From positions 28,465 through 92,464 of the IMG/VR virus record IMGVR_UViG_3300014913_000759: 64,000 nt of DNA, one strand, 5' to 3'. This DNA comes from a virus. Numbering within the stretch: the stretch's first letter is position 1; every line of letters starts with the position of its first letter. Below, one piece after another: positions 15,369 to 56,971 of this stretch. Under the pieces are notes generated by a model. That model saw only the letters and a program-made list of their open reading frames with translations, ran no database searches and was not told the DNA's origin. A program made the translations under genes and the position numbers.

Positions 15369-17960
15369 TTAAACAAATTCAGCCCGGTCATCATAACCCA
15401 AGATGAATTTCTGTGGTTGCGGTGAAATTGAGGCAGATAGGCCGTCGTTTTCAGGCGTGAAATACTTCGGAACTATACGGCATGCCAGGTCTGAGTATGT
15501 TCCGACGGCCTTAATCATACTTGATAGTTCTGCGGAGTCATAAGACGTTACATAGTGTATGGCAAAACGTATAGCCTCATCTAAATTGTTAAACTTGGAA
15601 AGGTCGTATAGTGTCTTGAGACGGTGGAGTTTCCTTCTGACATTAAGTTCGATATCTTCAGGTATATATGAGGCCACGTCTATTTTCCATCTATTAGTGA
15701 TGTCATATTTATATACTTTATTTTCGGCCTCTACCCAGAAATACTCAGGAACTATAGTCTGGAAATAGAGCTCCACCACATTATACCAATTGACCTGCTT
15801 GGCATGATTCAAATCATAAACCAGCTCCCTAACTTTAATATTATCAAACTCATACTCTTGTAACCATACCGGTGTTAATGTAGCACCCATATCGGTGTAC
15901 ACATATGTTCCAGTTATAGTGGCAGACAGGTAGGCACGTTGTTTATAAACATCTATAACTATAGGTATTTTATCCTCAATTCTATAACCCGTACCTATAG
16001 TTAAGGACACCGGTATTCTATCTGCGTGTACATATGAGGCGGCGTAACCCACCGTTGCTCCAAGGTTGGCTTCGTATGTTGGAATATCTTTTCCTGTTAT
16101 CTGTGCTGCCAACTCTTTGAGATATGAAAACTCCATTGTTGCACTCATATCCTTGTGGCCCGAGCCTCTGCATATGAAGTTTATTATACCTCCCAAATTG
16201 GAATGTTCCATAGTAACAACAGACAATGCTGCCGTCATAAATATCATCTTTGGATTAATAAACGCAGACAAAGATCTTGTGTAGCCTTGTGGTGTCAAAT
16301 AGGCACCTAAATTTCCAGGACTATGTGCCGCTATAGATAGTGCCAAATCGCCCTGCTGCATGAGAATTGTCGCTGGGTAGAGATATGCTGTTAAGTCTGA
16401 GGACACCTCTACTGCCTTCGCTGCCTTTATATATGCCGGCAAATCTTTAGGTTCACCGGTGATATTTATATAAGCTTGTAGATCATTTGGGCCATATTTA
16501 CCATTAAGATATGCTGGCAGGTCTTTCGTGTCCCAACCATGGATAAATCCTGACAGGTCTTCCGGCTCTATACAAAACACGTATGCTGTCAAATTCTCAA
16601 GATACGTTCCTCGAATGTAACCACTAAGGCCTTCATATTGCAGCGCTCTAATCCAACCGGCTAGATCGAACGTGGCCTCTCTAACCCACCCTTTAATAAG
16701 TGCTGTAATGTTTTTAGGTGGATGTGCGGCTACGTACGCTGGCAACTGGCGCATGTCGTTCCAGTCTATAAATGCGCCTAGATCAGACTGCTGCCAACCA
16801 TGAATATGGCCAGGAAGATGACCCATTGGCCACACCTTCAAATAGCCCGGCAAATCCTGTGGCGGTACTGGGTGTAGCTCCGCTGGAAGGTCGATGTACT
16901 GTAGCGCATTCAAGAAAGCAGGAAGATCTGCATCTCCTGGGTACATCTGTCTTAAGAAACCACCCAGATCTCGGAATTCTCTAGGCTGCGCAAAGATATA
17001 TGCTGGCAAATCTTCAGAGAAAATTTTAGAAATTATAGCTCCCAAGAAATCAACACACCTATAGCGCTGCCTACCTTGTACGTACTGCGGTACGCCATCA
17101 TCATAACCTATAAAATAGGCTTTAGGCGTCAGTGCCTGACAGTAAGAACCAACAACACTTGCTCCAAGGCTGCTGGGGTGCGTTACTCCGCCAACAATAT
17201 TAGCCGTTAAATCTCTATATTCACTAAATATTTCATGACCTGCTATGATAAAAGAGCCCAGATCAGCCTGAGAGGATGTCCAGCCTCTAATCGTACTTGG
17301 TAAATCTTCTTGTGATGTTTTCCAAGCTCTTATGAAAGCAGGCAAAAAATCAACACATCTGTATATTGGCCTGCCACCCAGGAACTGCGGAACACCTTCA
17401 TCGTATCCTATAAAATACTGCTTTGGTGAGAGTTGCTGACAACGTACACCCGTTATAGCGGTTGTCATGCCACCTATAACCCCGTACTCCGCGCCTCTAA
17501 TGAACCCTGACAAATCTTTTTGGCCGTGAAAAAACTCCTCTTCTAAACCGGTAATCTCGGCTGTTATATCTTTTGTGGATTGCTGTAAAGAGCGCAGTCT
17601 TGCCGACAGAAAATCAACACATCTAAATTCCTGTTTAGTTTCTAAGAATTGTGGCTCGCCACTGTCATAACCTATAAAATAGCTCTTGGGGCCAAGCGAC
17701 TGACATCTCACAGCCGCTATTGATGCGGTTAAATTGCTTGGTAGGTGGCCTGTGATTGAGGAGCCAAGCGAGCCTTGTGCCGTAATGGTAGAATATCCTA
17801 AAATAGACGCGCCTAGATTGCCATGACTATATAGTCCTGCATCGCCTGCAGGATAGAGCTTCTGGTATGAGCCATCCTTAAGTGCCCATCTAAGCACCTG
17901 GGAACCAGAATAGCCAGCAGGAAAGATCTTAGGGTATGTAGTTTGTCCTAATATTGGCAT
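15369..17960 (-). CDS. Repeat-rich fibre-like virion protein (DLxAxI repeats)
   Basis: About 40 copies (by eye) of (D/N)-L-x-(A/G)-x-(I/L), with a 12-aa period in the middle, plus three Cys-bounded inserts. Confidence 0.75.
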   Translation of the reverse strand: MPILGQTTYPKIFPAGYSGSQVLRWALKDGSYQKLYPAGDAGLYSHGNLGASILGYSTITAQGSLGSSITGHLPSNLTASIAAVRCQSLGPKSYFIGYDSGEPQFLETKQEFRCVDFLSARLRSLQQSTKDITAEITGLEEEFFHGQKDLSGFIRGAEYGVIGGMTTAITGVRCQQLSPKQYFIGYDEGVPQFLGGRPIYRCVDFLPAFIRAWKTSQEDLPSTIRGWTSSQADLGSFIIAGHEIFSEYRDLTANIVGGVTHPSSLGASVVGSYCQALTPKAYFIGYDDGVPQYVQGRQRYRCVDFLGAIISKIFSEDLPAYIFAQPREFRDLGGFLRQMYPGDADLPAFLNALQYIDLPAELHPVPPQDLPGYLKVWPMGHLPGHIHGWQQSDLGAFIDWNDMRQLPAYVAAHPPKNITALIKGWVREATFDLAGWIRALQYEGLSGYIRGTYLENLTAYVFCIEPEDLSGFIHGWDTKDLPAYLNGKYGPNDLQAYINITGEPKDLPAYIKAAKAVEVSSDLTAYLYPATILMQQGDLALSIAAHSPGNLGAYLTPQGYTRSLSAFINPKMIFMTAALSVVTMEHSNLGGIINFICRGSGHKDMSATMEFSYLKELAAQITGKDIPTYEANLGATVGYAASYVHADRIPVSLTIGTGYRIEDKIPIVIDVYKQRAYLSATITGTYVYTDMGATLTPVWLQEYEFDNIKVRELVYDLNHAKQVNWYNVVELYFQTIVPEYFWVEAENKVYKYDITNRWKIDVASYIPEDIELNVRRKLHRLKTLYDLSKFNNLDEAIRFAIHYVTSYDSAELSSMIKAVGTYSDLACRIVPKYFTPENDGLSASISPQPQKFILGYDDRAEFV
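17043..17712 (-). repeat. Three diverged copies of an approximately 105-bp coding repeat (CQxLxPKxYFIGYDxGxPQ...RCVDFL)
   Basis: Copies at about 17043-17150, 17343-17450 and 17608-17712 share 'aaatcaacaca' and 'cctataaaata' at DNA level. Confidence 0.8.
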
Positions 17961-56563: not shown

Positions 56564-56971
56564 CTAAATATGAAAGTACGGTTTCCCGTGCTGTGCCTGG
56601 TAGGGGCAGCCGGAATATGTACATTCAAACCCCCACCTAGGGCCTTTGTTTGTGGATTTCATATAGTAGTGACGCCCTTCTGCGTCCTCGTGTAAAACTT
56701 TTTGTGCGTCTGTAAAAGAAATTGTGCCTGTAATAGTTCTATAATTCGTCGCTGGGTCATAGTATGGATCTAAATAATAGCCTGTCATATTTTGAGTCCT
56801 GACGCCTGTGCACGTAGTATCATACGGGCACGGGGCCCAACAATGACCCCCATGAAGATGCTTTTTATGTTGTGGTAAATTATAGGTAGCTGTGGTGCCA
56901 TAAAGCTGTTCCCATCTTTCTGAATCAGTTCCACTTACCGTGGCACACCTTATCCTTTGTCCTCTAAGCAT
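56564..56971 (-). CDS. His/Cys-rich hypothetical protein
   Basis: 'HKKHLHGGHCWAPCPYD..C', 'FECTYSGCPY'; AGGAGG Shine-Dalgarno. Confidence 0.62.
   Translation of the reverse strand: MLRGQRIRCATVSGTDSERWEQLYGTTATYNLPQHKKHLHGGHCWAPCPYDTTCTGVRTQNMTGYYLDPYYDPATNYRTITGTISFTDAQKVLHEDAEGRHYYMKSTNKGPRWGFECTYSGCPYQAQHGKPYFHI

Follow-up and report, generated by a model that had tools for sequence, protein, structure and literature searches.

A Thr-flanked Ser-Gly motif in the virion proteins of an uncultured jumbo-phage lineage is a candidate O-glycosylation sequon

Do the particle proteins of an uncultured jumbo phage carry a sequon for O-glycosylation by the phage's own glycosyltransferases? This question is raised by a 64,000-nucleotide stretch of viral DNA (hereafter the window; bases 28465-92464 of the 92,464-bp IMG/VR viral record IMGVR_UViG_3300014913_000759, genome label G000), which encodes both a block of particle proteins at 15369-56971 rich in Ser-Gly (SG) and part of a glycan gene island. 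A previous examination of the letters and open reading frames (ORFs), here called the sequence-only reading, had proposed that x-x-S-G is a sequon for a phage-encoded pathway that coats the virion at many sites. Our analysis shows that T-x-S-G(-T) is a selected linear motif, specific to the outward-facing virion proteins of this lineage. We estimate a probability of roughly 40% that it serves as an O-glycosylation sequon, with a conserved pair of GT4 glycosyltransferases, GT4-A and GT4-B, as candidate enzymes. To our knowledge, phage-encoded virion glycosylation is established only for a few mycobacteriophages, and we know of no phage for which an acceptor sequon has been defined.

A directional, Ser-specific motif in virion proteins

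Expected counts for the virion proteins of the window were obtained by shuffling residues within each protein, so that its composition was kept. SG occurs 161 times against 101 expected (z 6.2-6.5), SGT 33 times against 8.8 (z 8), T.SG (the dot being any residue) 36 times against 8.5 (4.2-fold, z about 9), [TVASLI]2SG 59 times against 18 (z 10) and the composite T.SGT or TT.SG 18 times against 1.6. SG and GT are the top two of all 400 dipeptides by enrichment, and SGT is far ahead among tripeptides. The motif is directional, because GS is found at only 1.2 times its expectation (122 against 101). Replication proteins and proteins of the glycan island have no excess, and the difference between structural and replication proteins that had been noticed by eye therefore holds against composition shuffles. 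The individual SG and GS counts made by eye, for the 966-, 996-, 277- (7 SG) and 522-amino acid (aa) (8 SG) proteins and for DnaB (2 SG), were all exact.

The position before Gly is selective for Ser: among the G000 virion proteins, both T.[DN]G and T.AG stand at 0.7 times expectation, with T.TG, enriched 2.8-fold in G000 alone, as the exception. The classical turn dipeptides N-G and D-G are at 1.0-1.1 times expectation in the virion proteins of this lineage. The 747 SG sites of G000 and three relatives described below were pooled and give the consensus T-T-[V/I]-S-G-T-[L/V/I], in which Thr is enriched 2.4-fold at -3, 3.1-fold at -2 and 2.4-fold at +2, with Val/Ile at -1 and Leu/Val/Ile at +3. 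From -5 to +3 around SG, Thr, Val and Ile are enriched and charged residues are depleted (R, E, K and H, 0.4-0.6-fold).

A DNA-level cause was rejected: 19 distinct codon pairs encode the SG of the motif and both the AGY and the TCN classes of Ser codon are used, which therefore indicates selection at the protein level. Locally S/G/T-rich composition was also rejected, as GS, TG, ST and SS are all near expectation while SG and GT are enriched. Paralogy and repeats fared no better. The motif occurs in unrelated sequence contexts, in keeping with the unrelated folds named in the sequence-only reading: 35 of the 36 T.SG sites in G000 have unrelated flanks, and the 84 sites of the relative G008 fall into 67 clusters. 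The sites are spread over 13 of 19 virion proteins in G000 and 21 of 40 in G008, and the excess persists when the five DUF2341/LamG fibre paralogues are taken out (T.SG 19 against 4.9 expected, SGT 24 against 4.8). The significance that had been attached to SG at bare protein termini was not borne out, since the number of SG in the last 12 residues agrees with chance in each of the four genomes (2, 1, 1 and 1 against 1.4, 3.2, 2.2 and 2.6 expected in G000, G008, G011 and G012, respectively).

SG pairs exactly five residues apart (S-G-T-x-x-S-G) number 6, 8, 4 and 3 in the four genomes against about 1 expected, and appear once in six control phages combined. This spacing is 4-11-fold over-represented in three of the four genomes. 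Within the window, such pairs are located in the proteins encoded at 19938-22169, 30900-33800, 33809-40930, 47208-48776 and 55555-56553. A short tandem SG run is also present in G011: SGTVSSGTVSSGT.

Conservation of the motif across relatives and control phages

CheckV puts the completeness of the record at 35%, and the whole genome is probably about 260 kb. No cultured relative was found: megablast and tblastn searches with the virion genes against 50,697 phage records gave zero matches, and the identity of PolA to the phage records searched does not exceed 33%. When a 332-aa virion protein (55555-56553) was used as a query, 18 related IMG/VR contigs were identified, and the three long relatives G008 (150 kb), G011 (92 kb) and G012 (89 kb) were analysed whole. 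Their orthologues are 25-65% identical to the window proteins. In each of these genomes the T.SG excess is found in virion proteins only, at 6.6-fold in G008 (z 20), 3.0-fold in G011 (z 6) and 3.9-fold in G012 (z 9), while neither T.[DN]G nor T.AG exceeds expectation and GS stands at 0.9-1.1 times its own. SGT in G008 reaches 4.3 times expectation, against 1.2-1.4 for TGT, DGT, NGT and AGT. In the 332-aa protein, SG is at 2-3 times expectation in all 10 orthologues.

The same analysis was applied to the virion proteins of T4, lambda, HK97, crAss001, P2 and SPP1 (42,169 aa). SG is at 0.8-1.6 times expectation across these six controls, and T.SG at 0.7-2.9 times on counts of 2-13. The composite T.SGT or TT.SG has 0-3 matches per control phage, compared with 18 and 41 in this lineage, and [DN]G is at 1.3-1.5 times expectation in four of the controls (lambda, HK97, P2 and SPP1). 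Relative to these six phages, the extended motif, with its Thr flanks and its selectivity for Ser, is peculiar to this lineage.

Only 33% of SG sites are positionally kept between orthologues, yet the excess is kept in every orthologue. Most of it is located where the orthologue alignments are less conserved: SG is at 1.77 times expectation in these halves, against 1.20 in the more conserved ones. Both the turnover of sites and the excess in variable halves fit selection on site density in exposed regions.

The glycan island and its conserved GT4 pair

At the start of the window, the sequence-only reading had counted three glycosyltransferases, one GT-A and two GT4, together with a glycan-type methyltransferase. 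The glycan locus is real and includes two GT4 enzymes, but it had been undercounted: the island spans about 18 kb, extends about 13 kb past the window edge into L003 and encodes roughly nine glycosyltransferases along with methyltransferases and nucleotide-sugar enzymes. GT4-A is a 456-aa GT-B glycosyltransferase (2910-4280; the minus strand carries this and every other gene in the window) and GT4-B is a 373-aa GT-B glycosyltransferase (855-1976). They are followed by an S-adenosylmethionine (SAM)-dependent methyltransferase (Methyltransf_11, 346-858), which has an orthologue in G012, and by the N-terminal part of a GT2-like protein (2-346) that continues past the window edge. This last is the supposed GT-A enzyme, a call based on a sub-threshold Pfam match (17.5 bits, where the cutoff is 23.3); at its full length of 304 aa the protein has no Pfam match. 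Beyond the window, the island encodes a GT9 heptosyltransferase-like protein, two more GT4 enzymes, two Nucleotid_trans-type transferases, an FkbM methyltransferase and a further SAM methyltransferase. It also encodes a nucleoside diphosphate (NDP)-sugar dehydrogenase, a UDP-sulfoquinovose-synthase-like short-chain dehydrogenase/reductase (SDR; E 1e-94, under the family cutoff), a second SDR epimerase/dehydratase and a heptose-7-phosphate kinase domain that scores above its NCBIfam cutoff (363.6 against 345). The GT9 assignment comes from a Pfam match to residues 214-284 only (E 1.4e-9), and no heptose adenylyltransferase or isomerase was identified in the record.

Only GT4-A and GT4-B are conserved across the four genomes, at 60-65% and 50-61% identity, respectively, while the rest of the island varies. 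GT4 genes are present in every contig that reaches the locus (G000, G007, G008, G011 and G014, and G012, in which a weak Pfam match was confirmed by BLAST as an orthologue). The GT9-like gene, by comparison, is present in G000 and G008 only, and G000 alone was found to have the heptose kinase.

Some orthologues of the GT4 enzymes are long, but the possibility that they carry extra acceptor-binding domains was rejected, as the extra length consists of inteins with LAGLIDADG endonucleases. These inteins interrupt GT4-A in G008 and G012 and GT4-B in G011 and G012 (L020:6244-8691 in G008, L045:4532-6718 in G011, and L050:1652-4168 and 5928-9437 in G012). The NDP-sugar dehydrogenase of G000 also contains a LAGLIDADG intein (L003:1912-3831). 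Inteins typically occupy highly conserved genes, and sugar-metabolism genes are unusual hosts for them. The slot between GT4-A and GT4-B is variable as well: in G000 (1954-2909) it holds a thymidylate-synthase (TS)-like gene (2208-2909), whose position is not conserved among the relatives, and an 84-aa ORF, in G012 it holds a free LAGLIDADG homing endonuclease ORF (L050:4231-5826), and in G008 and G011 it is empty. Given these varying contents, the slot is probably an insertion hotspot for mobile elements.

Comparison with known glycosylation systems

The closest precedent among phages is provided by mycobacteriophages Che8, Corndog and Myrna, whose virions are O-glycosylated by phage glycosyltransferases (Freeman et al. 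2023, as cited in PMC12619734). As far as that citing account describes them, the likeness lies in phage-encoded glycosyltransferases, which are also present here, in cytoplasmic action and in particle proteins as acceptors, the last two being proposed for the present lineage from its genes. According to the same account, the mycobacteriophage glycans are attached to the C-termini of capsid and tail-tube subunits by few glycosyltransferases, whereas the candidate sites described here are internal, number dozens per protein set, are defined by T-x-S-G-T and accompany an island of about 18 kb, with terminal SG at chance level.

A second comparison is with the bacterial heptosyltransferases TibC and Aah, which act on TibA and AIDA-I, respectively (PMC4358343). 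TibC heptosylates the Ser in ...QNS*GG... of TibA. These systems resemble the proposed one in that a surface protein rich in beta-structure is O-glycosylated in the cytoplasm at a large number of serines, which occupy strand-turn positions. G000 and G008 encode a GT9-type heptosyltransferase-like protein, and G000 also a heptose-7-phosphate kinase. The GT9-like protein has no detectable sequence similarity to TibC or to any other solved chain (phmmer against all PDB chains, no match at E<=1). Heptosylation of the bacterial autotransporter type was rejected as a common step: G011 and G012 span the locus without a GT9 gene, an orthologue of the heptose kinase was not found in either, and both keep the motif (3.0- and 3.9-fold, as above). 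Heptosylation is therefore not the common initiating step.

Chlorovirus capsid and mimivirus fibril glycosylation (PMC9614988) shares with the present locus a virus-encoded, membrane-free machinery, methyltransferases and glycogene clusters that vary across a clade. In addition, GT4-A and GT4-B both have as their closest solved homologue B736L of chlorovirus NY-2A (E about 5e-7), an enzyme whose acceptor is not known. The differences are that these are viruses of eukaryotes and that chlorovirus glycans are N-linked at atypical Asn sites (PMC9614988).

The sequence-only reading had also drawn an analogy with the Ser-Gly signal for glycosaminoglycan (GAG) attachment in eukaryotes. GAG xylosylation does share a Ser-Gly core, sometimes in closely spaced pairs. 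GAG attachment sites have acidic flanks, however, whereas the flanks here consist of Thr and hydrophobic residues and are depleted of charged ones, and a GAG-type sequon was rejected on this sequence context. An NDP-sugar dehydrogenase is present in the island, but no clear UDP-xylose synthase was found among its SDR enzymes: matches to UDP-xylose-synthase models are weak (E 4e-13, 49 bits against a cutoff of 294), and these enzymes score best as dTDP-glucose dehydratase/epimerase-like and UDP-sulfoquinovose-synthase-like.

Sequon or structural turn

If T-x-S-G(-T) is a sequon, an O-linked glycan would be added to its serines in the cytoplasm of the host, either ahead of particle assembly or in the course of it. 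One of GT4-A and GT4-B would attach the first sugar, and the variable remainder of the soluble island would then build an oligosaccharide that is specific to the lineage, methylated and possibly sulfonated or heptose-bearing, using its GT4, GT2, GT9 and Nucleotid_trans enzymes, the FkbM and SAM methyltransferases, the NDP-sugar dehydrogenase, the SDR enzymes, the UDP-sulfoquinovose-synthase-like enzyme and the heptose-7-phosphate kinase. We infer from gene content and motif distribution that the island acts on proteins, that the motif Ser is the acceptor and that GT4-A is a candidate initiating transferase. Such a system would give the phage a sequon-directed glycan coat of its own making. A broader form of this proposal is more tentative still: a clade-wide coat in which a T-x-S-G-T sequon in exposed loops of dozens of particle proteins would be read by the GT4 pair, and the glycan extended by the hypervariable island so that its composition diversifies like O-antigen. 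If sequon-directed glycosylation is correct, glycan-coated phages would become predictable from metagenomes, the purpose of large membrane-free glycan islands in aquatic jumbo phages would be explained, and the motif and its enzyme would offer a compact tag-and-enzyme pair for cytoplasmic protein glycoengineering.

A purely structural role, which the sequence-only reading had considered unlikely for motifs in unrelated folds and at bare termini, is in our assessment about as likely as sugar attachment. Here, T-T-V-S-G-T-L would form a tight turn or beta-arch, favoured by the lineage, between two strands of beta-rich outer domains such as jelly rolls, Ig-like domains, fibre repeats and sheath/FliD-like domains, with no modification, and the island would have another target. 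Much of what weighs against a sequon is accommodated by this explanation. Across 15 orthologous families, the Ser of SG is kept at 0.40, compared with 0.38 for other Ser, and it is Gly (0.70) that is the conserved partner; lost sites become DG, NG, TG, EG or GG, which is ordinary turn behaviour. What survives of the sequon proposal is a selected, virion-specific linear motif alongside a large glycan system with a conserved GT4 pair, while extra constraint on Ser was not observed. The consensus itself reads as beta-strand, turn, beta-strand, and certain double units keep their position in orthologues that are about 30% identical. Surface loops had been expected to hold the motif; in an AlphaFold2 model of the 332-aa protein, all 8 SG are at strand ends, hairpin turns or flexible loops. 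This model is of moderate quality (predicted local distance difference test score, pLDDT, 60), and that of the 522-aa protein was unusable (pLDDT 41). Part of the signal also comes from widespread structural fibre collar repeats, e.g. ...TVSGV..DYHLTTKxYVD. Finally, the virion region of lambda (1-23000), which has no glycosyltransferases, features SG 58 times against 35.6 expected (1.6-fold) and SGT 10 times against 2.8 (3.6-fold), with GS at 0.9-fold, so an SG or SGT excess alone is not diagnostic.

Other features of the motif do not follow from a structural role. In lambda, the SG sites have neither the Thr upstream nor a strand-like context. A preference for turns should favour N-G and D-G at least equally, yet neither is enriched in this lineage while both are in lambda, HK97, P2 and SPP1; the use of Ser is therefore not accounted for by a general turn preference. 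Moreover, the Ser-specific, Thr-flanked motif recurs in unrelated folds of four genomes and not in the six controls, which are rich in beta-folds, and its excess is stronger in variable than in conserved regions. These observations favour a selected tag. Some further points weigh against sequon-directed glycosylation. Non-virion proteins show no avoidance of the motif. All contigs that reach the locus have GT4 genes, so the co-occurrence of motif and enzymes cannot discriminate between the explanations. The island might just as well act on DNA, a small molecule or a host component. Should the motif prove purely structural, it would constitute a Ser-specific, lineage-restricted turn signature and a caution against reading similar motifs as sequons.

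Two further explanations were weighed. The motif could be a recognition tag for something other than a glycan, namely phosphorylation, acylation, a phosphono- or sulfo-adduct linked to a thiamine pyrophosphate (TPP)-dependent decarboxylase, or an assembly or chaperone element. It does behave as a selected linear tag, and a split Ppd/ComDE-like TPP decarboxylase is kept in the virion block of most relatives. This explanation is nevertheless unlikely: no kinase, acyltransferase or phosphoenolpyruvate mutase was found beside the virion genes, the scores of the TPP proteins fall far short of the family cutoffs, and G008, which lacks the TPP pair, has the strongest motif excess. Slightly less likely is that the GT4 pair and the island modify phage DNA, glycosylating a hydroxymethyl-pyrimidine produced by the adjacent TS homologue, with the protein motif unrelated. 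This scenario is suggested by the gene order with which the replication operon ends here (nuclease, GT4, TS-like, GT4), and glycan hypermodification of DNA by phage glycosyltransferases is reported (Pyle et al. 2024, as cited in PMC12619734). For T-even-type DNA glycosylation, however, a TS-family hydroxymethylase would be expected to be conserved with the glycosyltransferases, whereas here the TS-like gene lies between the GT4 genes only in G000. It is located about 10 kb from them in G008, and no homologue was found in the incomplete G011 and G012 contigs that span the locus; its position is not conserved, which weakens the case for DNA hypermodification, as do the homing endonuclease in the same slot of G012 and the empty slots of G008 and G011. 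Roughly nine glycosyltransferases, with methyltransferases and a supply of sulfo-, heptose and uronic-acid sugars, also exceed the known needs of DNA glycosylation, and the motif would still be unexplained.

The virion gene block

The particle-protein block (15369-56971) encodes five paralogous DUF2341/LamG fibre-like proteins, Big_1 Ig-like proteins and several large proteins that match no family; PHROGs and Pfam searches for core head and tail proteins returned almost nothing. Among the fibre-like proteins, the 658-aa protein (17960-19936; DUF2341, LamG and CarboxypepD_reg) features 13 SG against 5.9 expected and ends in ...PVATTSG, and the 743-aa protein (19938-22169; DUF2341 and LamG) has 5 [TVASLI]2SG motifs against 1.4 expected (p 0.012) and ends in ...TTLSGTTISGGGY. 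The excess is weak (3 motifs against 1.1) in the 828-aa protein (22178-24664; F5/8 type C and DUF2341), which matches a PHROG tail protein, while the 1086-aa protein (24667-27927), with two LamG and two DUF2341 domains, has 17 SG against 10.4 and 6 motifs against 2.1 (p 0.014). The 996-aa fibre-like protein (27931-30921) has 9 motifs against 1.7 expected (p<0.001), and its last 225 aa contain 7 SG and no GS.

Among the remaining proteins of the block, the 966-aa protein (30900-33800) has 9 SG and 1 GS in its first 255 aa and contains two S-G-T-x-x-S-G double units, both of which are kept in its G011 orthologue (about 30% overall identity). In the 2373-aa protein (33809-40930), the motif sites cluster within one N-terminal domain (residues 214-320). 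The 522-aa conserved virion protein (47208-48776) has this domain too, and 7 of its 8 SG fall within the first 165 aa. SG is found 7 times against 2.3 expected in the 277-aa protein (48792-49625), which begins with MPTVSGS, and twice against 0.5 in the 135-aa protein (56564-56971). The 900-aa protein (50031-52733), a paralogue of a 397-aa Big_1 Ig-like protein, has 4 motifs against 0.9 expected (p 0.017).

The program-made ORF for the 332-aa protein (55555-56628, 357 aa, TTG start) is too long; an internal Met (MAI...) is the true start, because all ten orthologues begin there. In its model, an outer domain resembles sheath, baseplate and FliD proteins (Z 8.5, 23% identity to a phage XM1 chain), and there is an I-domain-like beta-barrel (Z 8.7) of a kind known from tail-tube, tail-tip and coat insertion domains. 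Both Z values are of borderline significance, although the best matches are consistently phage particle proteins; Foldseek gave local domain matches only.

In G008, five fibre-like proteins are encoded upstream of the head genes (7263-20349, L015-L016) and show the strongest SG excess seen (e.g. 17 against 5.5 and 16 against 4.7 expected). This block holds repeated collar-type units, ...TVSG[VI].P..DYHLTTK.YVD....[LI]SGT, and its G000 counterpart falls past the end of the G000 record. A single ORF of 7,531 aa upstream of a portal-like gene in the same genome (28607-51202, L016-L017) has no excess, with 49 SG against 40.8 expected and 3 T.SG.

The split TPP-dependent decarboxylase of the phosphonopyruvate/sulfopyruvate decarboxylase family is encoded inside the virion block of the window (53936-54577 and 54574-55071), with both halves far under their family cutoffs. 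The pair is kept in the virion block of G011, G012 and four further contigs and is absent from G008. Elsewhere in the record, a ribonucleotide reductase (L002:7418-9937) carries in-frame LAGLIDADG endonuclease and helix-turn-helix domains.

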